A DNA stretch of 64,000 nt from Patescibacteria group bacterium (GCA_040384765.1 JAZKIQ010000004.1:58252-122251), one strand, 5' to 3'; positions 17,307 to 38,113 are shown, numbered from the stretch's first letter. A program made the numbers and translations. Notes: generated by a model not told the origin, from the sequence alone.

Positions 17307-17415
17307 CCTCTTCTGGATGTGTCTTTTTGGAACACGGATATTTTTCTGGTGAAAAATTCCTCGAGCTCGCTTCGGCCAAGCTCGCTAGTTTCCAAAAAGA
17401 CACATCCAGAAGAGG
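17307..17415. repeat. family A fold-back element, copy 1
   Basis: 26-bp perfect inverted arms around a core shared with the copies at 31154 and 38003. Confidence 0.9.
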
Positions 17416-17493
17416 TCTTGAGAAGGGGAGGCGGACACTCATGTGGATAAGCACACACGAAGTGAAGAGATGGTGCTGTATGATAAAGGCATT

Positions 17494-18597
17494 ATGAGAC
17501 AATCGCACACTCGTCAGTTTGTTCTTGCTGTTCTGCTTGCTGCGGTTGCGTTCTTTTTGCTCGCGCGGGGGGAGAGCCCTGCTTCAGATTCAAATATAGG
17601 TATCGTGCCCGAGATCGGGGTGCGGCTTGTGCATGCTGGCCCCGACCTTACCGGTGCGCTTTCTGGTGCTGCCTGGTCGAGCACTATCGGCTGGGTAAGC
17701 TTCAACAGTGCCAACTCGTGGACGGGAAGTAGTGTGCCATACGTTGTGCGCTCCGATGCCGATGGGTACCTCTCGGGGCATGCGTGGAATCCAAATATTG
17801 GCTGGCTCTCATTCAACCGCGCAGATACAGGTACTCCTCCGCAGGCGGATATCAGTACGGGAGGGGTGGGTGCGATTGCACGGCTTTCAGGCAACAGACT
17901 CATAGGGTGGGCTCGCTTTCTTTCTGCGTGCACCAAAAATGCGCAAGGGAGGTGCACGGGGACAAACCCCGAAGCAGGTGGCTGGGATGGCTGGGTCTCA
18001 CTGAGCGATTTTAGCGGCGCTGCAAGCTATGGCGTTGGCTTCGACGGCACGATTCTCGGTGGTGGTGCCTATGCCACAAGCGTTGCTTGGGGGAGTACCA
18101 ACGTTGGCTGGCTCTCATTTAGCAAGGCTGCCGTTGGCTACGATGCTGTGAGCTTGGTGCCTGCAAACCAGGCTCCGCCCGAGGGCCTCGCGGCTCCAAC
18201 AGGTCTCGTGCTTGCACCACCACGCCTCTCATTTCTCACCGATCGCCCGGAGACGAGCACCTTCGGTACACTCCACGTAGATATGAATCCACCGGTAACG
18301 ATGACCCTTTCATATGGCGGTGTGCAGGCTCCTGCTGGGGTGACAGTGACTCAGACGATTACGCCGATCTTTAGCCAAAACCCCGTTACTGCATCCTCCA
18401 ACGTCCGCATACGCTTCCGGGTGTGTGCCGCACTTCCGGCAGGGTGCAATGCAGCGAAAGGCCATGCCCTTCCCAAGAGTGGGCAGTATCTCGTGACGAT
18501 CAATGGCACCTATAATGATGGTACCGGCCCTGTGACAGTACCATTTGTGGTGCCGGTCCAGGTGAATTCGCTCGTGAACAAGGTGAAAGAAAAATAG
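17494..18597 (+). CDS. secreted protein with G.AW...IGW[VL]SF repeats
   Basis: Signal/TM segment and 3-4 Trp-rich repeats (SGAAWSSTIGWVSFN, SGHAWNPNIGWLSFN, AWGSTNVGWLSFS). Confidence 0.8.
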   Translation: MRQSHTRQFVLAVLLAAVAFFLLARGESPASDSNIGIVPEIGVRLVHAGPDLTGALSGAAWSSTIGWVSFNSANSWTGSSVPYVVRSDADGYLSGHAWNPNIGWLSFNRADTGTPPQADISTGGVGAIARLSGNRLIGWARFLSACTKNAQGRCTGTNPEAGGWDGWVSLSDFSGAASYGVGFDGTILGGGAYATSVAWGSTNVGWLSFSKAAVGYDAVSLVPANQAPPEGLAAPTGLVLAPPRLSFLTDRPETSTFGTLHVDMNPPVTMTLSYGGVQAPAGVTVTQTITPIFSQNPVTASSNVRIRFRVCAALPAGCNAAKGHALPKSGQYLVTINGTYNDGTGPVTVPFVVPVQVNSLVNKVKEK

Positions 18598-18684
18598 GGA
18601 AGGGTACCCTGGCGCTTGCCTTGTACTTATCAACACCATCCCCGAAGCATGTCGCGTATACTAAACACACAGTAACTTTCCATT

Positions 18685-19794
18685 ATGAATATCAGTCAAG
18701 AATCACAAGGAGTATCTCTCGGAGCAAAGCTGCTCGGTGTGCTGATGGTGCTCGTTGTCGGTTTTGGTATCGCGCGCGCCGACTGGACAGCACCTGGCTC
18801 GACTCCACCGGGATGCACCGCTGGCACGGGGCCATGTGAGGCACCGATCAACGTAAGTAGTACCAACCAAACAAAAAGTGGCGGCCTTACGGTGAACGGA
18901 AATTTCATTCCACCGCGCCTTGCGACAGCCTCTCTCCCGACGTGCAATACTGCAAACAGGGGCTCAACTGTTTTTGATACGACGGCAGGTAAGCTGAAAA
19001 ATTGTGACGGTACTGTGTGGAAAGTGCTTGCCTCAGACGACCAGATTATCCCTCCCGTCCCATTTCCTTCTGGTGCAGTTATGTCGTTTGATATAGCAAA
19101 TACGGGATCACCGAATGATTGCCCTGCGGGTTGGACGGAGTTTACTGCCGCTGAAGGCCGATCTGTGGTGGGGCTTCAGTACGCTGGAACGCTCCGTGGT
19201 ACAGCAGGCACACCTCTGACAGATAGACAGGATAGACCTACTGGCTCGCATACCCACTACCAAGCTGTTCAGGATCACCCTATTTATGGGTATGGGCATA
19301 CGCATCCTGTTGCTGCAAGCTTTAGCGGTAGCGGTACCGGTAGCACTGAATTGCCTAGACATCGGCATTGGCTGGGTACTAATCAATACGGTGGTGACGT
19401 CGGCGCCACAAGCCAATTTCATTTTGGAGGGAATGCTAATCAGCAGGGGTATACCTATGTAGGGTTCCAGGGGAGCGGTACGAATCTCGCCCCCTGGAGC
19501 GGCTACCAGGTTGGGTACGAGGGTGGCGTCAACGATTACTACTACGGCCAAAACCCATACGTAACCATAACGGTACCGATATCAGGTTCAGTCTCGGGAA
19601 CCGCAAGTAAAGCGCATGAAAATATTCAGGTGTACAATCCTATCCAGGGTGGCTGGACCTATACATACGATGGTGCTCAGTACGCCCATCTCTACGAAGG
19701 GGGTTACGACACCAATGCTCCTACTCAGGCGGGTGCAAATATTGCGGGTACGAATGCTCCCTACATCCAGTTGTTGATGTGTAAAAAGAGTTAA
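18685..19794 (+). CDS. secreted tail-collar/tail-fibre-like protein
   Basis: Signal peptide; PSGAVMSF..CPAGW..GRSVVG collar-like motif; three HxH motifs; C-terminal PYIQLLMCKK. Confidence 0.75.
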   Translation: MNISQESQGVSLGAKLLGVLMVLVVGFGIARADWTAPGSTPPGCTAGTGPCEAPINVSSTNQTKSGGLTVNGNFIPPRLATASLPTCNTANRGSTVFDTTAGKLKNCDGTVWKVLASDDQIIPPVPFPSGAVMSFDIANTGSPNDCPAGWTEFTAAEGRSVVGLQYAGTLRGTAGTPLTDRQDRPTGSHTHYQAVQDHPIYGYGHTHPVAASFSGSGTGSTELPRHRHWLGTNQYGGDVGATSQFHFGGNANQQGYTYVGFQGSGTNLAPWSGYQVGYEGGVNDYYYGQNPYVTITVPISGSVSGTASKAHENIQVYNPIQGGWTYTYDGAQYAHLYEGGYDTNAPTQAGANIAGTNAPYIQLLMCKKS

Positions 19795-19810
19795 TTATCT
19801 TCTTAAGTCT

Positions 19811-20278
19811 ATGCCTGAAAACGAAAAGTATCCTATCAGCGTCCTCCTTGCTGCTGTCTGCTTGCTTCTGCTTGGCTACCAGAATGTACAGCTTGCCTCG
19901 ATCAGGAGTCTGCTTTCCCCGGGAGGTGCAGTTTCGTCTGAAATAAATCCACCCATACTGGACCCTTTGGATGTTTCTAAGCAAGCAAAAGCAGGCACTC
20001 CTCTTCTTGGCACCGTGGTGTCAATTAAGGGTGACGAGATCGTGGCTACTGCTCAGTATCAGCAAAATGGTGAAAGTAAAACGAAGAAGGTGACACTTGT
20101 TCTTTCTTCGGATAGTGTGCTTGGACCGGGAGGTAGAAGCGCGCTCAAGGCTGGCGCTACTTTTTCAGCTCTTACCAAAGAGTCGGTTCTCGAGTCGGAC
20201 CGCCTTACTGTTATCGGGCTGGGAATCATCCCTCCTTCGCCGCTTCCACCCCCACTTCCGCCTGAAATTGCTCAATAG
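19811..20278 (+). CDS. membrane-anchored hypothetical protein
   Basis: N-terminal TM, beta-rich domain and Pro tail. Confidence 0.7.
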   Translation: MPENEKYPISVLLAAVCLLLLGYQNVQLASIRSLLSPGGAVSSEINPPILDPLDVSKQAKAGTPLLGTVVSIKGDEIVATAQYQQNGESKTKKVTLVLSSDSVLGPGGRSALKAGATFSALTKESVLESDRLTVIGLGIIPPSPLPPPLPPEIAQ

Positions 20279-20290
20279 ATTTTAATCCCC

Positions 20291-20318
20291 AAGGCGCCGC
20301 GCAAGCGGCGCCTTTTTT
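20291..20318 (+). terminator. intrinsic terminator
   Basis: AAGGCGCCGC-GCAA-GCGGCGCCTT followed by a T run. Confidence 0.85.
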
Positions 20319-20336
20319 GTTTGCTACAATAGGAGT

Positions 20337-22097
20337 GTGCAGATTGATCCTCTTAAATTTAAGGAGTTTGTTATTGACTCGGGGCTTATCTCCCGCGCGG
20401 ATGTTGAAGCGGCGGAGGTGCTTTCCAAAAAAGAGCGCACAGGTCTTGGCGACCAGCTCGTGCTTTCTGGAAAGATCTCTGAGGCTGATGTGCGCCGCAT
20501 GGAGGCGTACCTCCTCGGGATACCGTTTGTTGAGCTCAAAGATCAGAAGATCGATTTTGAAGTGCTCTCGCTCATCCCTGAGCCCATTGCGCGCAAGCAC
20601 AACGTCGTGGCATTTCGCCGCACGCCAAAATCGGTAGAGGTGGCGATGCTCGACCCGCAGGACCTCGAGTCGATCGACTTTATCAAAAAGAAGCTCTCGC
20701 TTCGCATTGAGCCGCGCCTGACCGATCGCGACTCGATCAAGAGTGCGTTGCTTTCATATCAGAAGAGTCTCAAGGCAGAGTTTGGTGACCTGATTCAAAA
20801 AGAGTCGAGTGGCATAAAGAGTGTCGCGGAAGGGGATGATGTGGTGGTGGAGGAGAAAGATCTCGAAGCGCTTGCCAAGGATGTGCCGGTCGTGCGCATT
20901 GTGGACACGCTCATCAACCACGCCATTTTGCAGCGCGCCTCGGATATTCATATAGAGCCTGGGCAAAATGAGCTCGTGATACGCTACCGCATCGACGGCA
21001 TCCTTCACGATGCGATGGTGCTTCCGAAAAATACCTCGTCTGGCATCGTGGCGCGCATCAAGGTGCTCTCGAACCTTCGCCTCGACGAGAAGCGCTTGCC
21101 GCAAGATGGTCGATTTCGGGTAGAGGAGGGCGGCGATGTGCCGGCGCGCGTGTCGTTTCGTGTTTCAACGTTGCCTACTTTCTACGGCGAAAAGGTGGTG
21201 CTGCGTCTCCTCCGAGAAAATGCAAAAGGGTTCTCTCTCGAAGTGCTCGGCTTCCATGGCGAGTCGCTTGAAAAGATTCATGAGGCGTCTCATGCCACGA
21301 CCGGCATCATGCTCACCACCGGCCCTACCGGCTCGGGAAAATCGACAACCCTCTACACGCTGCTCGATCTTTTGAATACGCCGGATGTAAATATCTCGAC
21401 CGTGGAGGACCCTATTGAGTATCAGATGCCGCGGGTAAACCAGACACAGGTAAAGCCGGAGATTGGCCTCACTTTTGCAAATGGTCTCCGTGCACTGCTT
21501 CGCCAAGACCCGAACATTATTATGGTGGGGGAGATCCGCGATGGGGAGACGGCGGCGCTTGCCGTGAACGCTGCCCTTACGGGGCACCTCGTGCTTTCGA
21601 CGCTTCACACAAACTCTGCTGCAGGTGCGATCCCACGCTTGATCGAGATGGGCTCAGAGCCTTTTCTTATCGTATCTACGGTAAACCTGATCATTGCTCA
21701 GCGCCTTGTTCGTCGCCTTGGCCCGGGTGCAAAGAAAGCACTTCTCACTAAAACTGAGCTCGAAAATCTGGCGCGCCACGCAGACCTCGACCGTGTATTG
21801 AAAGCACTTCATGCTGAAAAGAAGGTGCGAGCTGATGACACCTGGAGCACGATTCCGTTTTGGAAGCCGGAGCCTTCGACAGATGCACCGGACGGCTATC
21901 TCGGCCGACTGACGATTGGTGAGGTGTTCAAGATGTCCTCTGCAATCAAAGAGCTCATCATGAAGTCTGGCACGGCCGATACTATCCACGAGCAGGCCCG
22001 CAAAGAGGGGATGCTTACTATGTTTGAGGATGGGGTGTTCCAGGCAGCCTCGGGTGTCACCTCGCTCGAAGAGGTGTTTAGAGTTGTGGGGGAATAA
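20337..22097 (+). CDS. pilB: type IV pilus assembly ATPase (PilB/GspE family)
   Basis: ASDIHIEP, RLPQDGR, Walker A TGPTGSGKST, LRQDPNIIMVGEIRD and TGHLVLSTLHTN. Confidence 0.95.
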   Translation: MQIDPLKFKEFVIDSGLISRADVEAAEVLSKKERTGLGDQLVLSGKISEADVRRMEAYLLGIPFVELKDQKIDFEVLSLIPEPIARKHNVVAFRRTPKSVEVAMLDPQDLESIDFIKKKLSLRIEPRLTDRDSIKSALLSYQKSLKAEFGDLIQKESSGIKSVAEGDDVVVEEKDLEALAKDVPVVRIVDTLINHAILQRASDIHIEPGQNELVIRYRIDGILHDAMVLPKNTSSGIVARIKVLSNLRLDEKRLPQDGRFRVEEGGDVPARVSFRVSTLPTFYGEKVVLRLLRENAKGFSLEVLGFHGESLEKIHEASHATTGIMLTTGPTGSGKSTTLYTLLDLLNTPDVNISTVEDPIEYQMPRVNQTQVKPEIGLTFANGLRALLRQDPNIIMVGEIRDGETAALAVNAALTGHLVLSTLHTNSAAGAIPRLIEMGSEPFLIVSTVNLIIAQRLVRRLGPGAKKALLTKTELENLARHADLDRVLKALHAEKKVRADDTWSTIPFWKPEPSTDAPDGYLGRLTIGEVFKMSSAIKELIMKSGTADTIHEQARKEGMLTMFEDGVFQAASGVTSLEEVFRVVGE

Positions 22098-22102
22098 CTG
22101 TT

Positions 22103-22194
22103 CATGAAGCATAAAACATGAATCACGAATCATTCTTCAAAAAATCCCCTCAGCATGTTCGGCATGTTTTATGTTTTATGTTTCATGTTCTATG
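22103..22194. repeat. inverted pair of degenerate 7-mer tandem arrays
   Basis: CATGAAG CATAAAA CATGAAT CACGAAT ... CATGTTT TATGTTT TATGTTT CATGTTC. Confidence 0.75.
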
Positions 22195-23409
22195 AAGTTC
22201 TCGTACACTGCCAAAACAAAAGCCGGAGATACCATAACCGGCATTGAAGAGGCTGCCGACAAGTTTGACCTTGCCAGGCGGCTTCGAACGGTGGGGTCTC
22301 TCGTTGTGCGGGCCGAGGAGGCAAAGGGAAATAAAGGAGTTTCACTTTCGCTCTCGTTCGGTACGCTTTTTAAGCGTGTGAAGCTCGAGGAGAAGATTTT
22401 TTTCACCACCAACCTCTCAGCCATGCTCTCTGCGGGCCTTTCGCTTGCGCGCGCTCTTGATGTGCTTACCCGGCAGACAAAAAACCCGGTGCTGCTTGCG
22501 GTCATCGAGGCTACTGCCCACGATATCGACAAGGGATCAAGTCTTTCGGAAGCGCTTGGTCGCCACCCAGAGGTGTTTCCAGAAGTGTTCACTGCCATGG
22601 TGGCGGCAGGAGAGGGCTCGGGAAAACTGCCCGACTCTCTGCGGCTGATCGGCGAGCAGCTTTCAAAGACGTACGCCCTTCGCAAAAAAATCCGCGGTGC
22701 GCTTATCTATCCGGCGATTATCGTGACCGCGATGGTCCTCGTGGGTATCCTGATGCTCACCTTTATCGTCCCAACTCTCTCTGCCACGTTTGAGGAGCTC
22801 CATATTACGCTGCCGCTCTCTACTCGCCTCATTATCGGACTTTCGCATTTTGTGGAGCGAAACGGCATATATCTTTTGCTTGCTCTTCCTTTCATCGGAT
22901 ACGCTTTTCTCAGAATGAGCCGAAGCGAGAAGGGAAAGCGATCGGTAGATACGTTTCTGATCCATGCACCACTCGTCTCGCCGATTGTGCGCAATATGAA
23001 CGCTGCCATGACCAGCCGGACACTCTCCTCGCTTGTTTCGTCTGGTGTGGAGATCGTGCAGGCGCTCGACATTACGAAAAAAGTAATTCAAAACTCGTAC
23101 TATCGAGCCGTGCTTACGAACGCCCAGAAGTCGGTCGAAAAAGGTGGCACGCTCGCCTCGGCGTTTCTCGCCGAGGCGAAGCTGTACCCAACACTGCTCG
23201 GCGAGATGATCGATGTAGGGGAGGAGACCGGAGCACTTTCAGATATGCTTTTGCGCGTGGCGGTGTTTTATGAAGGAGAGGTGGATACAGTGACCAAGGA
23301 TCTTTCTACGGTGATCGAGCCTATATTGATGGTGTTTGTTGGTGCCGCAGTGCTCTTTTTTGCGATCTCGATGATTCAGCCTATTTACAACATTAGCGCC
23401 GGCATATAG
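22192..23409 (+). CDS. pilC: type IV pilus platform protein (PilC/GspF family)
   Basis: AMVAAGEGSGKL, GALIYP and VGEETGAL..MLLRVAVFYE; follows pilB. Confidence 0.95.
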   Translation: MKFSYTAKTKAGDTITGIEEAADKFDLARRLRTVGSLVVRAEEAKGNKGVSLSLSFGTLFKRVKLEEKIFFTTNLSAMLSAGLSLARALDVLTRQTKNPVLLAVIEATAHDIDKGSSLSEALGRHPEVFPEVFTAMVAAGEGSGKLPDSLRLIGEQLSKTYALRKKIRGALIYPAIIVTAMVLVGILMLTFIVPTLSATFEELHITLPLSTRLIIGLSHFVERNGIYLLLALPFIGYAFLRMSRSEKGKRSVDTFLIHAPLVSPIVRNMNAAMTSRTLSSLVSSGVEIVQALDITKKVIQNSYYRAVLTNAQKSVEKGGTLASAFLAEAKLYPTLLGEMIDVGEETGALSDMLLRVAVFYEGEVDTVTKDLSTVIEPILMVFVGAAVLFFAISMIQPIYNISAGI

Positions 23410-23412
23410 AGC

Positions 23413-23889: not shown

Positions 23890-23893
23890 TTCG

Positions 23894-24388: not shown

Positions 24389-24389
24389 T

Positions 24390-24899: not shown

Positions 24900-24902
24900 T
24901 CT

Positions 24903-26060: not shown

Positions 26061-26069
26061 GGTAGGCTC

Positions 26070-26172
26070 AAACCTGCAAAAGCTATTTGCCGTCGCTGTC
26101 TGGCGCTGCTGCGCCAGCGCTGACTCTCGCGCCGTCGCGCTGCTAGACACGGCAAATAGCTTTTGCAGGTTT
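26070..26172. repeat. fold-back element with 24-bp perfect arms
   Basis: AAACCTGCAAAAGCTATTTGCCGT/ACGGCAAATAGCTTTTGCAGGTTT around a GC-rich structured core. Confidence 0.85.
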
Positions 26173-26245
26173 TCGCTGGGGCGGCAGAGAATACGCACCC
26201 TTGATTCTCTCGGCGGGCTTACGCAACCTGTGATAAAGTGGATTG

Positions 26246-27001: not shown

Positions 27002-27002
27002 C

Positions 27003-28423: not shown

Positions 28424-28453
28424 AGGTGGAGTATAGCGTGATACAATCCGGCG

Positions 28454-30088: not shown

Positions 30089-30155
30089 TGGGTCCTTGAT
30101 AGTAGTATGCTTTGTAGTATCTTGTAGCGAGACCGCCGGGTAGCCGGCAGGAGGT

Positions 30156-30608: not shown

Positions 30609-30698
30609 GTCAGTACCTGTTTTGTATAGGACTTGTTGCGCGGGCACCCTTTCTTTGGGTGCCCGTTTCATTTGCATCTGTTACTATCTTTTGTATCT

Positions 30699-31160
30699 AT
30701 GACCCCAAAAATAATCGCGTATACCGACGGGGGCTCGAGAAATAACCCGGGCGCGGCAGGGTCTGGGGCCTATATTATCGATGCGGAAGGGAACGTCCTC
30801 AAAAAGGCGTGGAGGGCGCTTGGTGTCGCGACCAACAATGTTGCGGAGTATACGGCAGTGATCCTTGCTCTCGAAGAGATAAAAAAGTTGGTGCCGGAAG
30901 CGGCGCGAAAAGATGCGGAGATCGAGATCCGGATGGATTCAGAGCTTGTATGTAGACAGATGATGGGGAGATACAAAATAAAAGCACCAGGATTGAAGCC
31001 GCTGTATGCAGATGTGCGAAATCTGATTATCGACTTTCCAAAAACGAAATTTGTTCATGTGCGGCGCGAGCTAAACAAAGATGCGGATGCTCTTTCGAAT
31101 GTGGCGATGGATGAAAGTGAGAAGATGCTAGCGAGCGCGAAAGAAGGGTTGTTCAAATAA
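30699..31160 (+). CDS. rnhA: ribonuclease HI family protein
   Basis: YTDGGSRNNPG, TNNVAEY, MDSELV and HVRRELNKDAD. Confidence 0.93.
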   Translation: MTPKIIAYTDGGSRNNPGAAGSGAYIIDAEGNVLKKAWRALGVATNNVAEYTAVILALEEIKKLVPEAARKDAEIEIRMDSELVCRQMMGRYKIKAPGLKPLYADVRNLIIDFPKTKFVHVRRELNKDADALSNVAMDESEKMLASAKEGLFK

Positions 31161-31270
31161 ATAAAACAGTATCTTTTTTGGAACACGGATATTTTTCTGG
31201 TGAAAAATTCCTCGAGCTCGCTTCGATCAAGCTCGCTAGTTTCCAAAAAAGATACTGTTTTATTTATTTG
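31154..31270. repeat. family A fold-back element, copy 2
   Basis: 30-bp perfect inverted arms; the left arm includes the rnhA stop codon. Confidence 0.9.
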
Positions 31271-31279
31271 GTGCGCTCA

Positions 31280-31783
31280 CTAGCGAGAGAGGAGGAGGAT
31301 TGAGAATGCAAATACGAGTGCTTGTGATCCGAGGCCAACTAGGTCCCATTTGAGGCGGGTCTTCGCATGCCACACATCGTGAAACTCTTTGAGCTCTTTC
31401 ACGGGTGTTTTGCGCCAGAACCAGTAGACGGACTGCAGTGCGTCGGGAAGAATAGCTCCGATGGCGACGGCAGCGTAGGGGAGAAGGCCGGAAAAGGAGA
31501 GCTCGGGGCGTACTACCAAGATTCCAGCTGCTGTGCCAACGGCCACATCAAACGTAATCTTTAAGAGATCTTTTGCAATATTGCGAGAAGTGGGGTGGAG
31601 CTCGATATGGAGAACCTCTGCGCGCTCCTGTTTTGCCGTGCCTAAGTGGTAGTCGTAGTGGGGGATCGCGTCAGCGAGGTAGTGCGTAAACATGCCAAAA
31701 AGAAACCCGAGGCCTGGGTTTGCTATGCCGATCATTGGCTTTGCTAGGGCTTCTGCTATTACAATATGAGTTGCCAGGGTCAT
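31280..31783 (-). CDS. membrane protein, possible metal-dependent hydrolase
   Basis: TH, HYLADAIPHYDY, LPD and FH..WH motifs; several TMs. Confidence 0.7.
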   Translation of the reverse strand: MTLATHIVIAEALAKPMIGIANPGLGFLFGMFTHYLADAIPHYDYHLGTAKQERAEVLHIELHPTSRNIAKDLLKITFDVAVGTAAGILVVRPELSFSGLLPYAAVAIGAILPDALQSVYWFWRKTPVKELKEFHDVWHAKTRLKWDLVGLGSQALVFAFSILLLSR

Positions 31784-31785
31784 GG

Positions 31786-31824
31786 AGTATGTTTTAAAAG
31801 CATCCGCTGCTTTTAAAACATACT
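31786..31824. repeat. 17-bp perfect palindrome between divergent starts
   Basis: AGTATGTTTTAAAAGCA-TCCGC-TGCTTTTAAAACATACT. Confidence 0.8.
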
Positions 31825-31835
31825 TTAGCATAGGT

Positions 31836-33302
31836 ATGTACGACAACTACGCTGTCCCATTTTTTGTCGGATTTTTGGTTGCGCTTACTGCCGCCTCCTT
31901 TTTGACGATTCCTCTCTCTGCCGTACTGTTTTCTTGCGTTGTTGCTCTCGCTTTTCTTTTGCTTTCCCGACAGTACCGTTTTACTCCAGCCGCTTTTTTC
32001 TGCGTGGGTGTCGCATTTGGACTGACGAGATTTCTTGGTTCGGATGTTCCGAGAGACCTGCCCAAAGAGGTGCTTGGCGTCGAACATTCATATGAGGGAG
32101 TAGTTGTAGAGGAGCCTGTCGTTTCGGATCAGAATGCAAAGCTTCTCGTGCATCTTTCCGATCCCGAGCTTTCTGTCCTTGTAACGACAAACCGATATCC
32201 GGTCTATGAATATGGCGATGATATCGAACTCGTAGGGAAGCTAAAGAAGCCTGAAAACTTTTCCGATTTTGACTGGGTGGGGTATCTCGATATGCGCGGG
32301 GTTTCGTATGTGATGAGTTATCCGAATACCACCCTCATCTCTCGCGCTAGTGGATCGGCACTGCTCACGACCCTTCTTCGCTTCAAGCACTGGTCGATCG
32401 AAAAGATCGCGGAGGTGCTGCCCGAGCCAGCTGCTTCTTTTGCGGCCGGGATTGCATTTGGGGGAAAGGGAGGCCTCCCGAAAGATCTCACGGAGTCATT
32501 TAGAAAAACGGGCACTTCACATATTGTTGCAGTGTCAGGCTACAACCTTACTTTCGTTGCCGATCGCATCGATCTCCTTTTGAGAGGTGCGCCACTGTTC
32601 CTTGCTCGATTTGGGGGAGTGCTCGGGATCATTCTGTTTACTCTTATGACTGGTGCACAGGGAGCAACTGTGCGCGCTGCCATCATGGCGCTCGCGCTTA
32701 TTGCAGCCCGTCATCTGGGCAGGCCAGCGAGTCAGTTTCGACTCCTTATGATCGCGGTGTTTTTTATGGCGCTCCAAAATCCACGGATTCTTTTCTTCGA
32801 TCTCTCTTTCGAGCTTAGTTTTCTCGCAACAGTGGGGCTCATTTTTCTGTCACCTCTCTTTGAGAATCTCATTGAACGCTTCGTTTCGTCCGACGCGCTT
32901 CGGACTCTTATTTCAGGCACCCTTGGCGCACAGACGGCCGTGCTTCCTCTTATTTTGTATAAAACAGGGATTCTTTCCCTTGTCGCGCTTCCCGTAAATC
33001 TGGTCGTCTTGCCCTTGGTGCCTTTTGCGATGATCCTTGTTTTGGTGACAGCTCTCTTTGGGGCCTTCTCACACCTTCTTTCGTTCGCCATCGGTGCAGT
33101 TGCTTATGGAGTCCTCTCGGCAATCCTTTTTATTATCGAACAGTCTGCTGCGCTTCCTCTTGCTTTCGTTGAGGTTGGTTTTCCTTTTTCTCTCATGTGC
33201 TTTAGCTATGCGTTCCTCGTAGCTTGGATCTTCTTTGCTTATGAGCTTTCGAAAGCCCCGGCAGTGCTCGTCGACGGAGTCCGCATCGAACTCGTCGACT
33301 AA
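31836..33302 (+). CDS. comEC: ComEC/Rec2 competence channel (membrane part)
   Basis: FRKTGTSHIVAVSGYN, ATVRAAIM and DLSFELSFLAT. Confidence 0.93.
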   Translation: MYDNYAVPFFVGFLVALTAASFLTIPLSAVLFSCVVALAFLLLSRQYRFTPAAFFCVGVAFGLTRFLGSDVPRDLPKEVLGVEHSYEGVVVEEPVVSDQNAKLLVHLSDPELSVLVTTNRYPVYEYGDDIELVGKLKKPENFSDFDWVGYLDMRGVSYVMSYPNTTLISRASGSALLTTLLRFKHWSIEKIAEVLPEPAASFAAGIAFGGKGGLPKDLTESFRKTGTSHIVAVSGYNLTFVADRIDLLLRGAPLFLARFGGVLGIILFTLMTGAQGATVRAAIMALALIAARHLGRPASQFRLLMIAVFFMALQNPRILFFDLSFELSFLATVGLIFLSPLFENLIERFVSSDALRTLISGTLGAQTAVLPLILYKTGILSLVALPVNLVVLPLVPFAMILVLVTALFGAFSHLLSFAIGAVAYGVLSAILFIIEQSAALPLAFVEVGFPFSLMCFSYAFLVAWIFFAYELSKAPAVLVDGVRIELVD

Positions 33303-33338
33303 GAATCGCGCTGTTCCTCGATCTGCTACACTTTTCCT

Positions 33339-34190
33339 GTGCCGTTTTCGTATAATAAATGGTTGCTAGTGGCTCTTCTTCTCGCTGGGAATATCGGCGT
33401 TTGGAATGCAGTTGCGGCAGAAGCCGCGCACCCTTTGCGCATATATGTGCTCGATGTGGGCCAAGGGGATGCGATATATGTAGAAGCTCCAAACGGAAAC
33501 AGTCTTCTCTTGGACGGTGGGCCTGACCGTTCGGTACTCCGAAGGCTTGGTGAAATTATGCCCTGGTATCGGAGGTCGATCGACCTCATCGCTCTTTCTC
33601 ACCCGCACAAAGATCATTTTGAAGGTCTTATTGACGTTGTCTCTCGGTATAAGGTTGGCGGACTGGTTGGCTCGGGTACACAAACGGATGACCCGTACTA
33701 CCGGTCTTGGCGCGAGGCTCTGATTCAGGAAAAAGTATCTGAGGTGATTCTCGGCAAGGGCGCAGTGATCGACCTCGGCGGTGGTGTTCTCTTGACCACG
33801 CTTCTTCCGAGAGAGGATGCGACACACTCAACACCGCATGATGGAATGCTCGTTATGCGTCTTGACTACGGTGAGAGCTCTATTCTTTTCACGGGCGATA
33901 TGGAGGAAAATCTGGAGTCAGGACTCGCGATTTTCGAAAGGGAAGAGATACGGTCAGATGTTCTCAAGGTTGGTCATCATGGCTCGCGTACTTCGAGCTC
34001 CGAGCAGTTTCTCGATGCGGTAGGGCCCGCGATTGCGGTGATCTCTTTGGGAAAAGGGAATAGCTACGGTCATCCGCACAGTGAAGTAGTGGAGAGGTTG
34101 CTCTCGCGCAAGATCGAGATTTTTCGTACTGATAGTGAAGGGACAGTACTACTTGAAAGTGAGGGAGAACGCTTTGTTATTCAAAAATAG
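33339..34190 (+). CDS. ComEC-type metallo-beta-lactamase-fold domain (separate gene)
   Basis: LDVGQGDA, SHPHKDH, FTGD, LKVGHHGS and YGHP. Confidence 0.92.
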   Translation: MPFSYNKWLLVALLLAGNIGVWNAVAAEAAHPLRIYVLDVGQGDAIYVEAPNGNSLLLDGGPDRSVLRRLGEIMPWYRRSIDLIALSHPHKDHFEGLIDVVSRYKVGGLVGSGTQTDDPYYRSWREALIQEKVSEVILGKGAVIDLGGGVLLTTLLPREDATHSTPHDGMLVMRLDYGESSILFTGDMEENLESGLAIFEREEIRSDVLKVGHHGSRTSSSEQFLDAVGPAIAVISLGKGNSYGHPHSEVVERLLSRKIEIFRTDSEGTVLLESEGERFVIQK

Positions 34191-34197
34191 CCCCCAC

Positions 34198-34995
34198 CTA
34201 ATGAGCATGAGTGCCAGCCTCTGTTTCTGGTGGGAGTACGTATGGTGCGACTACGGGAGATGGAGTAGGAGAAAATGGGCGGATGCTCGCGAGAAGAGTT
34301 TTCCCTTCTTCTCTGTAGTTTTGAGTAAGGAGATCTTTTTGTTCTGCGACATAGTACCAGGTACGGATAACTATGCCGTTTATGACTTCGCGTTTTTGGA
34401 GCGCGTAGATAGAAAGTGGGCCGAGGTTTGCGGGATCTTGGCAGTTTAGCGCGCGTGTTTCGATGAGGCGCGCCCGGAGAGAGGTGGGAAGCTCTGTGGG
34501 TATCGTATAGAGGCAGCGGTCAAAAAAGCTTTGCTGGTAGAGATTGGGGCGAGTTGGGATATCGCTTGTGCGAACACCTGTGGGGAAAATCTCTACGATA
34601 ATCGTTTTTGTGACGCTACCGATTGTTGCGTAGACTGACTCTTTTTTTACAAAAATCGCTTGCACTACGTGGCCCGGCTTGTCGGCAAAGGTGAGCTTGC
34701 GTTCTCCTGCGTATGCCCAGCTGAGGTCGGGGAGTGGCATCGCTGTCCTGGTGCCGTTTGCTTCTATCAAGTAGGTGTTCGAAGCCCCGCCATTTCCGTT
34801 TGCGAGAACTGCTACATGGCCCGTACCCGGAGTGTTGATCGCTTTTGAGAAAGGGTCGACCAGCCCGTACATAAGTGTGTATACGACAAAAGCGGCAAAC
34901 CAGAGGCCAAGGAAGAGGACGAGGAGTCTGAATATAAGAAACCCCTCAATCCACTTGAACGACTTTGAGATTGCGTCTGAGATCAAGGTAAACAT
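34198..34995 (-). CDS. membrane-anchored hypothetical protein
   Basis: 265 aa ORF with an N-terminal TM. Confidence 0.7.
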   Translation of the reverse strand: MFTLISDAISKSFKWIEGFLIFRLLVLFLGLWFAAFVVYTLMYGLVDPFSKAINTPGTGHVAVLANGNGGASNTYLIEANGTRTAMPLPDLSWAYAGERKLTFADKPGHVVQAIFVKKESVYATIGSVTKTIIVEIFPTGVRTSDIPTRPNLYQQSFFDRCLYTIPTELPTSLRARLIETRALNCQDPANLGPLSIYALQKREVINGIVIRTWYYVAEQKDLLTQNYREEGKTLLASIRPFSPTPSPVVAPYVLPPETEAGTHAH

Positions 34996-35049
34996 CTCTT
35001 TTAGTATCCCATAGAAAGCGGAAAGTTTTTAGGAGAACAGGGTAGAGAA

Positions 35050-35083
35050 AAAGAAACACCGCCACTTTGTGGCGGTGTTTCTT
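35050..35083. terminator. intrinsic terminator downstream of rpmB
   Basis: AAAGAAACACCGCCAC-TTT-GTGGCGGTGTTTCTTT. Confidence 0.8.
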
Positions 35084-35093
35084 TAGATTTTCT

Positions 35094-35175
35094 TATTGCC
35101 TAGTGAAGTGAGAGTCGCGAAAGTGTACTCACTTTCATGACCGAACGAATGACGGCAAAAAAGTGAGCACACTTT
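35094..35175 (+). repeat. family B fold-back element, copy 1
   Basis: TATTGCCTAGTGAAGTGAG..GTCGCGAAAGTGTACTCACTTTCATGACCGAACGAATGACGGCAAAAAAGTGAG; near-identical to 49946-50023. Confidence 0.9.
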
Positions 35176-35422
35176 ATGCTGCGACTGGCTCTGCTTTAGG
35201 TGTTATCGTTTTTCGCTTGCGTGCAGTTGAAGGTCCGAGGTGGAGCGATGCTTTCAAGCAGTGTGTACAGATTTTGATACGTGAACCGTCTGCGAGGCGT
35301 GCCCACTGCAGGTTTGGCTGCCGACGGCGAGTGCCTGTCGGGTTGAATTTTGTAGCACGAACACGGTTGGAGTAGCCTCCTCCGTTGTGCGTACCTTTGC
35401 TGCAAATAGGGCACATCTTCAT
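35174..35422 (-). CDS. rpmB: 50S ribosomal protein L28
   Basis: CPICSKG...RRRQPNLQ...KICTHCLK. Confidence 0.9.
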   Translation of the reverse strand: MKMCPICSKGTHNGGGYSNRVRATKFNPTGTRRRQPNLQWARLADGSRIKICTHCLKASLHLGPSTARKRKTITPKAEPVAA

Positions 35423-35454
35423 GGTTTTTGTATGCTACTATACCTCTACTCTCC

Positions 35455-36057
35455 ATGCAAGGATTTTCACTCATTTTTGACCTCCTGATCGTCCTCGTTT
35501 CCGTCATTGTGCACGAAGTTTCGCACGGGTATATGGCGGCGTATCTCGGCGACCCTACAGCGAAGCTTTCGGGTCGCCTGACCCTCAATCCGCTTTCGCA
35601 CCTTGATCCGTTTGGCTCGATTTTGTTGCCAGGGATGCTCTATTTTATAGGTGCACCGATGATCGGATATGCAAAGCCGGTACCGTACAATCCATATAAC
35701 CTTCGCGGTGGGAAATGGGGACCTGCGCTTGTTGCAATGGCGGGACCCGGGACCAATTTTCTTATCGCTCTTATTTTTGGTCTTTTGCTCAGGTTTGCTC
35801 CGGTTGATCTGGCAACTGTCTCGGTGCTTTCGTCGATCGTACTTATCAATATTGTACTTGGTGTTTTCAACTCGATACCTGTGGCTCCGCTTGATGGATC
35901 GAAGGTGCTTTTTGCCCTTCTTCCATATCGCTACTATTGGGTAGAGGAGTGGGCCGAGCGATACAGTCTTGTGCTCGTGCTACTTTTTATCATTCTTGGT
36001 TGGCCGCTCGTGGAGTGGATTGTGCCGCTTGTCTTCCGGTTGATTGTCGGTGTTTGA
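35455..36057 (+). CDS. site-2 protease (M50 family)
   Basis: HEVSH, GDPTAK..GRLTLNP and FNSIPVAPLDG. Confidence 0.93.
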   Translation: MQGFSLIFDLLIVLVSVIVHEVSHGYMAAYLGDPTAKLSGRLTLNPLSHLDPFGSILLPGMLYFIGAPMIGYAKPVPYNPYNLRGGKWGPALVAMAGPGTNFLIALIFGLLLRFAPVDLATVSVLSSIVLINIVLGVFNSIPVAPLDGSKVLFALLPYRYYWVEEWAERYSLVLVLLFIILGWPLVEWIVPLVFRLIVGV

Positions 36058-36179
36058 AGCACGTTTTAAAACCGCAGATTCGCGAAGCCGAGGGAGAAAA
36101 ATGCGAGGTGTACACAAGGTACAGTGAGTGTTTTTCGACCGATGGCGACAAAGAAGGTGGGGTTTTAAAACGTGCTTCA
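36055..36179. repeat. fold-back element with 19-bp perfect arms
   Basis: TGAAGCACGTTTTAAAACC/GGTTTTAAAACGTGCTTCA; apical module resembles 10947-11137. Confidence 0.8.
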
Positions 36180-36234
36180 GGAGGTATACTATCCTCGGCT
36201 TGTAAAAACAGGGGGAAGAAAGGGGTGATCTCAG

Positions 36235-36996
36235 GTGCCTTTTTCAAAAAGGGGAGCGGCTGGAAAGAAGCTATTCGGACTTTCCACGGCAGATACAGAA
36301 CAGAGTACTGAAAAAAAGGAGGTGATCGTACGTGCGCTCGTGCCTCTTGTGGAGGGTGCGCGGTCGCTCCTGCATATCGGGGCAGGGGACGGCGCTCTTG
36401 CCATCCCTCTTTCTCGAGTGGTGACTCGGTATGTAGCCCTCGATCGTAGGCCGACACATCTCAGGGCTCTCAAGGCAGCAGGCCTGGAGGTGATTGAGGG
36501 TACGTTTCCGTGCCCTGTCCGGACGAGTCGGGCGCTTGGGGTGAGAACCGAAGGGTTTGCTCGCGTGGTGGCATGCGAGATAGTGCCATCTCGGCAGGAC
36601 CAGCTCGAGGCGTTCATTACGAGTGCTTGGTCGTCCGTAGAGAGTCAGGGCGCGCTTATCCTCGTGGTTCTTGATGACGAGGATTCGGAGTGGCGGCTGC
36701 TTCTCGAAAAGCTTGGGCTCTTCGAGGATTCGGGTATCGTTCCGGGAAGAATCGACACAATCGCTTCAATGCTCGTGGGGAAGGGTAGCCTCGACATGAT
36801 TGCTCTCGGGTCGGTCCTTGTTTCGGACGGATATGCGGATTTCATCGCAGAGCTTGCCCGTATCTATCTACGGGGCGACGCTGGCCACGACCGGTGCTTT
36901 CGAGCGACTGAAGCCCTGCTCAAGGCCCGATACTGGAACGGGACCTCCTTTTTATTCCCGCTTACGCACCTTATCTATAGGTGCATTCGCTTCTAG
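36235..36996 (+). CDS. class I SAM-dependent methyltransferase-like protein
   Basis: LLHIGAGDG motif I-like segment and YVALD. Confidence 0.65.
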   Translation: MPFSKRGAAGKKLFGLSTADTEQSTEKKEVIVRALVPLVEGARSLLHIGAGDGALAIPLSRVVTRYVALDRRPTHLRALKAAGLEVIEGTFPCPVRTSRALGVRTEGFARVVACEIVPSRQDQLEAFITSAWSSVESQGALILVVLDDEDSEWRLLLEKLGLFEDSGIVPGRIDTIASMLVGKGSLDMIALGSVLVSDGYADFIAELARIYLRGDAGHDRCFRATEALLKARYWNGTSFLFPLTHLIYRCIRF

Positions 36997-37051
36997 CCTC
37001 GGGTTCACGATGGCGCTGCGCACGGCTTCCGTGCGCAGTTCTCTTTTTCTG

Positions 37052-37080
37052 TTGACAACCACCCTCCCTTTGCTTACTAT
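37052..37080 (+). promoter_or_regulatory. str operon promoter
   Basis: TTGACA-17 nt-TACTAT. Confidence 0.8.
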
Positions 37081-37095
37081 GTACCTCTACATATC

Positions 37096-37515
37096 ATGTC
37101 GACCATCAATCAGCTCATACGCAAGCCCCGCAAGCCTTCTCGCCGGCTCTCGCGCACCGTTGCGCTCGCGCGCGGCTTTAACACGCTTAAGAACCGCCCG
37201 GTGTTTTATCCAGCGCCTTTTAAGCGAGGTGTATGCACAAAGGTATCGACTACAACTCCGAAAAAGCCTAACTCAGCTCTCCGAAAGATCGCCCGCGTTC
37301 GCCTTACGAACGGCATGGAGGTTACCGCATATATTCCTGGTATTGGCCACAATCTTCAGGAGCACTCAGTGGTGATCATCCGCGGCGGCAAGGTAAAGGA
37401 CCTTCCTGGTGTTCGATATCATATCGTTCGCGGTATGCTCGATGCATCTGGCGTAGACAAGCGTAATCAGTCGCGCTCGAAGTATGGTGCAAAGCGACCA
37501 AAGGCTAAGAAGTAA
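37096..37515 (+). CDS. rpsL: 30S ribosomal protein S12
   Basis: [11 protein letters not shown] and DLPGVRYH. Confidence 0.99.
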
Positions 37516-37529
37516 TTTTGTAATATCTC

Positions 37530-38000
37530 ATGCGACGCAAAGTAAAAGGACGAAATATAGTAAAACCGGATTTCAAATACAATTCGGTGAAGATTGCTCA
37601 GTTCATCAACTACACCATGGAGGATGGCAAGAAGGAGGTTGCCCGAAAGGTGGTGTACGGTATGCTCGAGGATCTGAAAAGGGATATGAAGGTTGAGAAC
37701 CCGGTAGAGCTTTTTGAGATTGCGATCAAGAACGTGGCGCCTTCAACCGAGGTGCGCAGCCGCCGCATTGGTGGTGCTACATACCAGGTACCTCGCGAGG
37801 TTCGTCCGGAGCGTCGACAGGCACTTGCGTATCGCTGGATTCTTGATGCAGCACGCAGCAAGAAAGGTTCGCCAATCCAGAAGCGTCTTGCGGATGAGAT
37901 TATCGCTGCATCAAAGAACGAAGGGGAAGCGGTGCGCAAGAGAGAGAACACTCAGAAGATGGCTGACGCGAACCGGGCATTTGCACATTTTGCTTGGTAA
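37530..38000 (+). CDS. rpsG: 30S ribosomal protein S7
   Basis: EVRSRRIGGATYQVP and ANRAFAHF. Confidence 0.99.
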   Translation: MRRKVKGRNIVKPDFKYNSVKIAQFINYTMEDGKKEVARKVVYGMLEDLKRDMKVENPVELFEIAIKNVAPSTEVRSRRIGGATYQVPREVRPERRQALAYRWILDAARSKKGSPIQKRLADEIIAASKNEGEAVRKRENTQKMADANRAFAHFAW

Positions 38001-38002
38001 GT

Positions 38003-38113
38003 GGCGCTCGCCACAGTTCCTTTTTGGAACACGGATAATTTTTTGCTAAAAATTTCCTCGAGCTCGCGCCGGTCGCGCTCCCTAGTTTCCAAAAAGGAAC
38101 TGTGGCGAGCGCC
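38003..38113. repeat. family A fold-back element, copy 3
   Basis: 27-bp perfect inverted arms; diverged core with compensatory changes. Confidence 0.9.

Follow-up and report, generated by a model that had tools for sequence, protein, structure and literature searches.

A dispersed repeat family with a conserved three-way-junction core and perfectly inverted, copy-specific arms in a Patescibacteria genome

Three repeat copies in a 64-kb window of a Patescibacteria genome (the window being the whole stretch of 64,000 nucleotides analysed) share a folded core, and each closes it with an outer stem that is free of mismatches but unrelated in sequence to those of the other two. They belong to a family with 12 copies (class A) plus about 15 diverged relatives in the host genome (G000; 822 kb, 99.8% complete). 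The combination of a conserved fold and a site-specific, flawless stem points to copying of arm onto arm at the DNA level, rather than to an ordinary transposon. We tentatively read the family as a REP/MITE-like palindromic DNA repeat. Fold-back template switching would keep its closing stem free of mismatches and at times rebuild it from adjacent DNA, and exchange between copies would keep the cores alike.

Three copies in the window

All three copies are on the + strand (17307-17415, 31154-31270 and 38003-38113), and the sequence reads as the initial annotation described it, with a conserved part of about 75 nt (75 nt common to the three) between unrelated, mismatch-free outer arms of 17, 20 and 18 nt. 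A repeat search returns longer perfect inverted arms of 26, 30 and 27 nt for copies 1, 2 and 3, with a spacing of 57 nt in each; the shared portion of these is the inner T-run plus GGAA, and the outer 17, 20 and 18 nt differ between copies. The core's 5'-edge 17-mer is found three times in the window versus 0.13 times expected from shuffles (0 of 100 shuffles reach three). The parts of the copies, and of one possible relative, are as follows.

17307..17323, + strand: copy 1, 5' arm, copy-specific, 17 nt; perfect complement of 17399-17415, unlike the arms of copies 2 and 3
17324..17398, + strand: copy 1, conserved part, 75 nt; 101.8 bits with covariance model R1, structure from the 21-copy alignment
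17324-28 (T-run) and 17329-32 (GGAA) with 17390-93 (TTCC) and 17394-98 (A-run), + strand: copy 1, inner closing stem
17333-35 (CAC), 17361-63 (TCG) and 17387-89 (AGT), + strand: copy 1, junctions
17336-38 (GGA), 17339 (bulged T), 17340-57 (7-bp hairpin, loop 17347-50) and 17358-60 (TCC), + strand: copy 1, P2
17364-86, + strand: copy 1, P3, with a TC/TC internal loop and loop 17373-77
17399..17415, + strand: copy 1, 3' arm, copy-specific; perfect inverted repeat of the 5' arm
31154..31173, + strand: copy 2, 5' arm, copy-specific, 20 nt; first 7 nt inside the RNase H gene
31174..31250, + strand: copy 2, conserved part; core between a 6-nt T-run and a 6-nt A-run; R1 101.1 bits, alignment A1
31251..31270, + strand: copy 2, 3' arm, copy-specific; its end lies 9 nt short of the stop codon of convergent ORF 31280-31846
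38003..38020, + strand: copy 3, 5' arm, copy-specific, 18 nt; starts 2 nt past the S7 stop codon
38021..38095, + strand: copy 3, conserved part; R1 100.2 bits, alignment A1; P2 and P3 variants unlike those of copy 1
38096..38113, + strand: copy 3, 3' arm, copy-specific; the EF-G gene starts at 38172
26070..26172, + strand: possible distant relative; perfect 24-nt copy-specific arms around a 55-nt centre

Copy 1 lies between divergent ORFs, copy 2 between convergent ORFs and copy 3 between the S7 and EF-G genes, which bears out the divergent, convergent and intra-operon settings first reported. The arm of copy 2 was also said to run into the rnhA stop codon, and its first 7 nt are indeed the last 7 nt of the RNase H ORF (30633-31160), namely the last base of a Phe codon, a Lys codon and the stop. 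Apart from these 7 nt, the stems of the window copies are unrelated to any gene end. None of the three adjoins a tRNA gene, and each has two arm copies only, with no third copy nearby.

In the predicted fold of each window copy, a long stem encloses two small hairpins (-61.1, -50.3 and -64.8 kcal/mol for copies 1, 2 and 3), the hairpins that had been proposed for the core; z is about -10, and none of 200 shuffles folds as stably. The fold of the reverse strands is just as stable (z -9.9 to -12.5). No fourth copy was found in the 64-kb window with R1, which gives three matches above 100 bits and a next best of 14.8 bits. In the possible relative at 26070..26172, the 3' half of the centre resembles the P3 and CTAG junction of the family, and a second copy of this centre, with different arms, is found at G000:C5:6916-6998 (R1 29.8 bits). 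Its membership in the family is weak, since R1 does not report the window copy itself.

Distribution of the family

In the host genome R1 gives 27 matches: 12 at 89-105 bits, four at 46-55 bits and 11 weaker. Many of the diverged relatives (class B) are located behind tRNA genes. The search of related genomes with the core, which the initial annotation had proposed, recovered close copies in 10 of 40 other genomes of the order (BLAST; 11 of 41 counting the host), and R1 matches are present in two of 151 genomes of a phylum-wide sample, the host included. The family is largely confined to one order. A metagenome scan gave at best 51% protein identity, and the stretch itself was found in only one sequencing run.

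The outer stems are unrelated among the 12 class A copies, with only the centre and the T-run/GGAA stem in common; arm lengths vary from 12 to 21 nt, and no direct target duplication is seen at the host-genome copies. Copy-specific arms, as first described, thus hold throughout these 12 copies, but not in genus g6, where the arms are partly shared (see below). With crude ORF calls, many copies begin within about 20 nt of a stop codon, and in co-directional settings three copies are oriented with the genes and three against. A gene-oriented copy directly behind the S7 gene is found in 5 of 30 related genomes, from five families. Some copies, such as this one, may be old.

Structure and mode of variation

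The core is a three-way junction, the junction and internal-loop bases of which are invariant across families. In a structure test on 21 copies, 95.4% of cells are paired versus 70.7% in shuffles, 23 of 31 pairs have changes on both sides, 159 cells are double-changed versus one with a one-sided change, and G-U is seen in only 4 of 651 cells. A model-fitted alignment of 22 copies contains 648 Watson-Crick cells, three G-T, 13 A-C and 18 others. The A-C cells are nearly all at outer stem positions of copies from outside the host genome, and about half of them are a recurring CA/AC motif of the G005 copies. The same pattern appears in genus g6, where 12 copies with alignable arms have 34 double-changed cells, one one-sided and 15 unpaired. 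At C3:7892 one arm has gained a T and lost an A, and the other arm carries the mirror change. These counts, the scarcity of G-U and the mirrored indel fit the earlier suggestion that the arms are actively homogenised. The core is also modular, with each of two P2 variants found alongside each of two P3 variants among six copies.

Multi-base changes in one arm are matched by the exact reverse complement in the other, with no G-U intermediates; this is the signature of template switching, seen as a pattern and not as an observed event. From it we infer template switching as the cause, and from the module combinations we infer exchange between copies. The conserved unit would be a core of about 57 nt, forming the three-way junction as single-stranded DNA or RNA, flanked by the short T-run/A-run stem. 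Outside the core a helix may be the sole requirement, with its sequence local to each copy. During DNA synthesis, intrastrand (fold-back) template switching would rewrite one arm from the other in the DNA itself, and could also extend the stem into neighbouring DNA, as in the tRNA-derived stems of class B. Exchange of sequence between copies would keep the cores similar within a genome, in which case a near-identical core does not mean a recent insertion. The junction bases and TC/TC internal loops persist despite this symmetrising, so selection on the specific fold, and hence a function or partner, must also act.

Strong selection on a DNA hairpin could yield the same Watson-Crick-only pattern with no special mutational process.

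tRNA-linked relatives and other inverted repeats

Perfect inverted repeats free of N and with arms of 12 nt or longer number 264 in the genome, versus six in block-shuffled sequence. For 11 of the genome's 43 tRNA genes, a stretch of 10 nt or more from the gene's last 24 nt recurs in inverted form at most 260 nt downstream (0.10 expected from shuffles), and eight of these 11 copies end at the T-loop. In the class B loci the tRNA gene is followed, often after a terminator, by its own 3' end in inverted form, then the folded core and a direct partial copy. Both arms of the stem thus correspond to the neighbouring tRNA's 3' end, one inverted and one direct, and the core occupies the place of a T-loop. 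The P2 and P3 modules are common to class B and the three window copies; the inverted and direct tRNA 3'-end copies are present in class B and absent from the window copies. Next to one tRNA-Val, the arm carries a Watson-Crick complement where the tRNA's own T-stem has G-U, so it is the 3' strand that was copied, in inverted form and as DNA.

Such copy-specific extension is not special to the family. The arms of plain terminator hairpins reach 8-10 nt into tRNA 3' ends, one hairpin encloses a whole tRNA gene with arms that extend the acceptor stem, and in at least one unrelated repeat family of the genome the inner arm is conserved and the outer arm copy-specific. Simple perfect hairpins (arms of 14 nt or more, loops no longer than 10 nt) number 97 in the genome.

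Empty sites and alternative origins

Four empty orthologous sites were identified for the dispersed copies, all in distant relatives (of another genus, or with 63-80% flank identity). Three have neither arm and one is ambiguous, with none clearly carrying one arm alone. In G002 the S7/EF-G spacer aligns with the 3' flank of copy 3 and has only 6 nt in place of the 18-nt arm. In G001 no arm separates the RNase H gene from the convergent gene, the two being directly adjacent, and the RNase H C-terminus of the window differs from that of G001. The G005:C2 and G041:C2 empty sites have neither arm, with one of the four sites overall ambiguous. No hairpin is present at the empty sites in G001, G002 and G041:C2. 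As arm-length sequence is absent at the three clear empty sites, the arms there were not simply copied from flank that the relative still has.

In genus g6 the terminal arms are partly conserved (alignable in 12 copies), and the element recurs together with its arms at another locus (86% identity over 138 nt). ATAG flanks one g6 insertion on each side and is present once at the empty site, a possible 4-nt direct duplication, and this insertion looks like an ordinary miniature element. One orthologous site has hairpins in both species, with the same arm layout but different centres. The outer arms of G005 C23b, C26 and C5b and of G041 C14 and C20, read by eye, run A-run, stem, then stem, T-run.

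It is possible, but unlikely, that a mobile core lands in the loops of existing hairpins (terminators, tRNA T-arms, other palindromic repeats) and that later changes zip the junction shut. The 97 simple hairpins would provide targets, several g6 outer arms resemble bidirectional terminators with the element at the tip, and the orthologous hairpins with different centres are as expected from such insertions, as are the T-loop position of the class B cores, the terminator-like arms of copy 2 and C12:6730 and two class C copies enclosed by a larger shared palindrome. However, the inner ends of the host-genome arms have a genome-average GC of 0.49 versus 0.64 for simple hairpins (Mann-Whitney p 0.005), the 5'-arm A-tract seen in 74 of the 97 simple hairpins is absent from most cored arms, an unpaired loop remnant is seen at no junction, and the hairpin expected beforehand is missing from the three empty sites named above.

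Inverted target duplication, the explanation first put forward for the arms, is less probable still. Here the core lands, and its self-complementary ends fold back and prime synthesis along the target, leaving an original arm and a newly made inverted one. The class B stems do include inverted neighbouring sequence, and the excess of inverted tRNA 3'-end copies is in agreement, as are the variable arm lengths without direct target duplication at the host-genome copies and the lack of a transposase gene in the searches below. The perfect repeat of copy 2 enters the RNase H gene by 7 nt, although the insert may just as well have supplied these codons, given that the C-terminus is not the same as in G001. 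For the dispersed copies the idea in its simple form is not supported by the empty sites, three of four having neither arm, the outcome named in advance as counting against it, albeit in distant relatives throughout. It is also at odds with the recurrence of the g6 element with its arms at another locus, and with the plain terminators that extend their arms likewise without any core.

A functional structured RNA, either a cis-acting mRNA element (processing, stability, attenuation) or a small RNA, with a closing helix selected for pairing only and drifting in sequence, is similarly improbable: the invariant junction and internal-loop bases, the very low folding energies, the S7-linked copies and the many starts close to stop codons agree with it, but orientation to co-directional genes is evenly split and G-U pairs hardly occur; copy 1, flanked by divergent genes, is not expected to be spanned by any single transcript in a fixed sense; and Rfam, self-cleaving ribozymes included, has no match at gathering scores in the window. 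A relaxed Rfam search yields at best microRNA-precursor models, scoring 21-26 bits where the thresholds are 54-100, and the class B loci match tRNAs only. The S7-linked copies could mean a conserved role at the RNA level.

Comparison with known systems

Fold-back template switching, the process we favour, can produce a perfect stem in a single event and correct its pairing (Mönttinen and Löytynoja 2022, PMC8794818), and quasipalindrome correction is described in E. coli and yeast (PMC7202029, PMC3820800). The likeness to the present family lies in the reverse complement of one arm being written onto the other, with multi-base compensatory changes and no G-U intermediates (PMC8794818). The process is described for RNA genes and reporter genes, and is not known as a standing property of a dispersed repeat family or as extending stems into tRNA genes.

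Dispersed hairpin repeats are also known as the Ssn-related motifs NTS/SRM, which are cut by small GIY-YIG single-strand nucleases and flank the nuclease gene (Chenal et al. 2025, PMC11893778). They are 20-50 nt long, read as single-stranded DNA and not RNA, and often clustered around genes. The motif differs from that of the present family. PF01541 (GIY-YIG) has three matches in the genome, at C5:147112, C3:17620 and a 529-aa ORF at C1:59179. About 10 kb separates the two small GIY-YIG ORFs from the family copies nearest to them, and no family core motif was seen by eye in the flanks of these ORFs.

A search for the HUH/Y1 genes (RAYT, IS200-like) that the initial annotation suggested looking for came back empty: PF01797 has no match in the 99.8%-complete genome, whereas the control search matches 6 of 14 reference genomes. 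Neither reverse transcriptase nor TnpB was found in the genome, and a single tyrosine recombinase is present. Likewise, no parent element with a transposase sharing its ends, as for a MITE, was found in the searches for Y1, TnpB and reverse transcriptase.

The REP/BIME and REPIN repeats of proteobacteria are mobilised by RAYT, a Y1/HUH transposase with its gene in the genome, and their stem sequence is conserved. The present family resembles them in being short, intergenic, hairpin-forming and present in many copies, often after stop codons or inside operons, with no gene of its own. Here, in contrast, the centre is conserved and the outer stem is copy-specific, no Y1 gene was found, and the conserved stem and 5' tetranucleotide of REPs and REPINs are lacking in the 12 class A copies.

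Correia/NEMIS elements of Neisseria and RUP of Streptococcus have conserved ends and direct target duplication. Like them, the family is non-autonomous, about 100-150 nt long, foldable into one long hairpin and located between genes. The 12 class A copies differ in their unrelated ends and lack of duplication, whereas the g6 copies are much like these elements, with shared long terminal repeats and the possible 4-nt duplication.

A palindromic repeat family with free arms and a fixed core

Three copies of a palindromic element lie in the window:

17307-17415, + strand: copy 1, perfect inverted arms of 26 nt (outer 17 nt copy-specific)
31154-31270, + strand: copy 2, arms of 30 nt (outer 20 nt copy-specific), one arm taking in the last 7 nt of the RNase H gene
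38003-38113, + strand: copy 3, arms of 27 nt (outer 18 nt copy-specific), with the ribosomal protein S7 gene on one side and the elongation factor G gene on the other

The sequence of all three stretches was re-read and agrees with the initial annotation, which had reported a shared core enclosed by mismatch-free inverted arms; the gene settings of copies 2 and 3 were likewise confirmed. In the repeat search, 57 nt separate each pair of arms. The inner 9-10 nt of the arms (a T-run and GGAA) are common to the copies, and the outer parts are unrelated among them. The 64 kb contain three occurrences of the motif at the core's 5' edge, against 0.13 expected from shuffles, and no shuffle out of 100 had as many. 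The predicted fold of each copy is a long stem that encloses two small hairpins (z near -10), and the opposite strand folds equally well or better. Small bacterial repeats are usually defined by their conserved ends; this family reverses that definition, its ends being free, its middle fixed and its stem flawless.

The 822-kb genome holding the window (G000) was searched with a profile of the three cores and then with a covariance model (R1) built from 21 copies. R1 has 27 matches in G000: 12 of class A, the type of the window copies (89-105 bits), four of class C, more diverged (46-55 bits), and 11 weaker matches (class B, many of them behind tRNA genes, and others) that have the first hairpin and part of the second. 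By BLAST with copy 1, the core is present in 11 of 41 genomes of the order, G000 included, with at most 13 matches per genome. R1 matches 17 times in G005 and six times in its congener G041, which belong to another genus, g6. In an even sample of the phylum, searched with R1 under stricter filters, 2 of 151 genomes match at E <= 1e-6 (G000 and one of the same class). Rfam gave no family at gathering scores for the window copies, and a relaxed search returned microRNA-precursor models only, so far below threshold that they indicate a long hairpin and nothing further. Neither the family nor any repeat that combines a conserved centre with perfect arms particular to each locus was found described in the literature covered, which excludes most subscription journals. 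The family as such thus appears undescribed; the class of object (small interspersed palindromic repeats) and the mechanism proposed below are known.

An isolated 5' motif at C1:105636 of G000 was considered as half of a split full-length form with an internal gene, and was rejected because the sequence around it is ordinary and no 3' half is close by. Towards its 3' end, the coding sequence of the RNase H gene (window 31036-31058 and 31128-31146) has TTCCAAAAA, identical to the inner 3' arm of the element, and a 9-nt stretch that is the exact reverse complement of GCTCGCTAG in the core. These internal matches may be the remnant of an older inverted copy that now gives C-terminal codons, or chance.

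Core structure and mode of change

Aligned across six genomes, 21 class A copies support a three-way junction as the predicted structure of the core.

Predicted elements of the class A core
P1: closing stem of the three-way junction
Junction P1-P2: Y-A-C
P2: GGA/TCC, bulged T, 7-bp hairpin with loop TGNT
Junction P2-P3: TCG
P3: three pairs, TC/TC internal loop, four pairs, loop of 4-6 nt
Junction after P3: AG(T)

On this structure 95.4% of cells are paired, against 70.7% in shuffled alignments. Changes on both sides are seen in 23 of 31 pairs, a signal that is lost when partners are slid by 1-3 columns. Among the 651 cells, 159 have changed on both sides and one on one side, and four are G-U. 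A model-fitted alignment of 22 class A copies has 648 Watson-Crick cells, three G-T, 13 A-C and 18 others. Nearly all A-C cells are at outer stem positions of copies from genomes other than G000, and a CA/AC motif that recurs in the G005 copies accounts for roughly half of them. Because of this confinement, the wobble excess (13 A-C versus 3 G-T) gives no evidence for either strand, and a strand call based on it was discarded. In one copy, at C3:7892, the 5' arm has gained one T and lost one A, and the 3' arm carries the mirror change.

The six most similar copies have two variants each of P2 and P3, in all four combinations.

Combinations of hairpin variants
Window copy 1: P2 variant 1, P3 variant 1
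C12 copy: P2 variant 1, P3 variant 2
C11 copy: P2 variant 2, P3 variant 1
Window copy 3: P2 variant 2, P3 variant 2

This is the pattern of recombination or gene conversion among copies, and with such exchange of parts the copies are not datable by core identity.

The best-supported account, a tentative one with a little less than an even chance, is a REP/MITE-like palindromic DNA repeat whose stem is kept perfect by fold-back template switching. The core would be maintained by selection and by exchange between copies. The closing stem would be free in sequence and kept perfect by the switching, which would at times lengthen it into neighbouring DNA. Template switching is a published mutational mechanism by which a single event can produce a perfect stem or a multi-base compensatory change (PMC8794818); quasipalindrome correction in E. 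coli and yeast is the subject of PMC7202029 and PMC3820800. If fold-back copying operates here, identical cores with unrelated arms need not imply recent insertion.

Hairpins across the genome and the origin of the arms

Copy-specific perfect arms are not special to this family. When N-free perfect inverted repeats are counted whose arms measure 12 nt or more and stand no further than 160 nt apart, G000 has 264 and block-shuffled sequence six. The 264 include 97 simple hairpins with arms of 14-34 nt, of which 74 have an A-tract in the 5' arm, like bidirectional terminators. Their perfect arms often continue beyond the terminator itself, taking in arbitrary sequence and, in several instances, 8-10 nt of the 3' end of a tRNA gene, and a whole tRNA-Pro gene is enclosed by a perfect 17-nt repeat that extends its acceptor stem. 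At least one unrelated family has a comparable build: an 82-90 nt centre between arms that are conserved on the inside and copy-specific on the outside. It has at least nine copies in the genome, one of them at window 36055-36179, and several start 1-3 nt from a stop codon. A search for another source of the outer arms within G000 gave 11-mers at chance level only (about 0.4 expected for each, by hand estimate); the sole 11-mer shared between outer arms is that of C11:5187 and C1:54203.

In g6 many copies have arms that can still be aligned, and one element recurs with its arms at a second locus (86% identity over 138 nt), showing that arms travel with the element in this genus. Across 12 copies and 22 arm pairs, 94.3% of cells are paired and 15 cells are not; both partners have changed in 34 cells, and one partner only in a single cell. 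The g6 arms are thus divergent among copies and complementary within each. Several outer arms in g6 read as a terminator with the element at its tip, which keeps alive the reading that elements insert at the apex of pre-existing hairpins. For most G000 copies the composition of the arms argues against it: GC content at their inner end is 0.49, the genome average, versus 0.64 in simple hairpins (p 0.005). Overall, apex insertion is a doubtful explanation.

Further palindromic features lie in the window. At 26070-26172, a GC-rich centre of 55 nt is enclosed by perfect, copy-specific arms of 24 nt, and the 3' half of the centre is similar to P3 and the CTAG junction of the family; this centre is found again at G000:C5:6916-6998 with different 14-nt arms. 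At 31786-31824, 17 bp pair perfectly around a 5-nt loop; this hairpin stands just before the start of a 506-aa ORF and inside the start of a 188-aa ORF on the opposite strand. In G005, a 37-nt stretch (L226:2064-2100, contig C23) has 93-100% identity to stretches on at least six other G005 contigs and one G041 contig, and is another short repeat family of g6.

Empty sites in related genomes

No genome of the same genus as G000 was found among the genomes of the order compared, and a metagenome scan with the RNase H protein gave 80 loci of at most 51% identity, none usable for comparing filled and empty sites. The stretch was found in one sequencing run only, with no RNA run among the listed holders; contigs of that run break inside elements and none joins across an empty site. 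More distant relatives were therefore used. In G002 (same family, S7 72% identical) the S7/EF-G spacer is 49 nt long, and from base 7 onward it matches, in a visual alignment, the sequence 3' of copy 3, the six bases before being too few for any arm. In G001 the RNase H gene abuts a convergent gene with no spacer and has a different C-terminus, so the 7 nt of arm inside the RNase H gene of the window are perhaps codons from the insert.

In g6, G005 was compared with G041 (61% complete), the flanks being 63-80% identical. Five G041 copies were queried in G005, with both flanks located for three, one flank for one and none for one; of three G005 copies queried in G041, flanks were located for one. 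The site of G041:C10 is empty in G005:C2, where neither arm is found; ATAG occurs once there and on both sides of the insert in G041:C10. G041:C13 against G005:C32 gives a clean gap with no 3' arm and a 14-mer only loosely like the 5' arm. At G041:C15 and G005:C9 both genomes have a hairpin, with the same arm layout and different centres. Opposite G005:C23b, G041:C2 has no arm of either side and no hairpin.

The initial annotation had proposed that the element makes an inverted copy of its flank on insertion, and had taken an empty site with neither arm as evidence to the contrary. Three of four clear gaps have neither arm and the fourth is ambiguous, which argues against a simple inverted target duplication, although with relatives this distant the result is not decisive. 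Duplication of this kind is considered unlikely.

By R1, a copy lies directly 3' of the S7 gene, in the orientation of the gene, in 5 of 30 related genomes (G000, G005, G006, G022 and G017), representing five families. These copies are closer to the other copies of their own genome than to one another. Either the site is old and cores have evolved in concert within genomes, or elements land preferentially in this spacer. Of the other 25 S7/EF-G spacers, many have long hairpins of other kinds, and at least four recognisable hairpin kinds besides the studied family, plus plain terminators, are seen in spacers L133-L160. Across the order, the spacer either attracts hairpin inserts as a hotspot or simply tolerates them.

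Relatives behind tRNA genes

Of 43 tRNA genes, 11 are followed within 260 nt by an inverted copy of 10 nt or more from their own final 24 nt, against 0.10 expected from shuffles, and 8 of the 11 copies end at the T-loop. In the sense of the tRNA, its 3' end is followed, often after a terminator, by the inverted copy, the core on the opposite strand and a short direct copy. With this layout, the closing stem of the class B core is tRNA-derived sequence. The same layout is found beside tRNA-Leu and tRNA-Val in other genomes, with an arm that has the Watson-Crick complement where the T-stem of the tRNA itself has G-U; the arm is thus the 3' strand copied as reverse-complement DNA, rather than a copy of the tRNA 5' strands. 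Stems can be written from local DNA, as these relatives show. P2 and P3 are common to the tRNA-linked cassette core and the dispersed copies, a homology that joins two element groups, both apparently undescribed, with a possible common origin.

The family and its tRNA-linked relatives might together be a transposase-free mobile element that spreads and rebuilds itself through replication, snap-back included, a speculative reading with a low probability. A nascent DNA strand would switch onto a copy of the core; once copied, the core would fold back at its ends and from there prime synthesis along the newly made strand, so that every new copy would be clamped by an inverted copy of adjacent sequence. 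To our knowledge, replication-driven snap-back mobility with target duplication has been described for no element.

Direct repeats are seen at two tRNA genes. At G000:C4:49276-49500 a direct rather than inverted repeat of the final 16 nt of tRNA-Gly(gcc) lies beyond the class B core. At G000:C7:1130-1400 a direct repeat of the final 16 nt of tRNA-Ile(gat) lies about 90 nt downstream of the tRNA, with the core upstream of it. Both resemble the two ends of a tiny integrated element. In G006 (contig C2, L041, about 1400-1700) a class B core adjoins a complete tRNA-Glu gene, with a sense T-arm fragment on one side of the core and a second, antisense copy of the 5' two-thirds of the tRNA on the other. 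This arrangement ties the element to partial tRNA duplications.

DNA-level and RNA-level readings of covariation

Perfect compensatory changes are normally accepted as proof of a functional RNA, for which tolerated G-U pairs and a single retained orientation would also be expected. Here G-U is nearly absent, both strands fold alike, and class A copies between co-directional ORFs (crude ORF calls made for this analysis) lie three with the genes and three against, making a functional RNA improbable. The mode of variation points to DNA rather than RNA. Fold-back template switching and the three rivals (apex insertion, inverted target duplication and functional RNA) are not mutually exclusive.

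Perfect covariation could thus stem from a mutational process in DNA, with no selection at the RNA level, a caution for how covariation is read. CPR genomes are streamlined and have few repair genes; through such a process they would gain a general source of hairpins, altered gene ends and tRNA-gene rearrangements. The family offers a tractable and testable case of how hairpins are created and kept in streamlined genomes.

Candidate enzymes

The search for mobilising enzymes covered Y1/HUH, reverse transcriptase, TnpB, tyrosine recombinase and GIY-YIG families. G000, which is 99.8% complete, gave no match for the first three and has one tyrosine recombinase, at C4:42940-43464. Two small GIY-YIG ORFs were considered as adjacent mobilisers and rejected, being about 10 kb from any family copy. 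At G000:C3:17511-17900, a small (87-90 aa) single-domain GIY-YIG ORF immediately precedes tRNA-Gly(ccc) and has on either side a direct copy of the first ~14 nt of that gene, an arrangement that looks like an insertion at the 5' end of tRNA-Gly(ccc).
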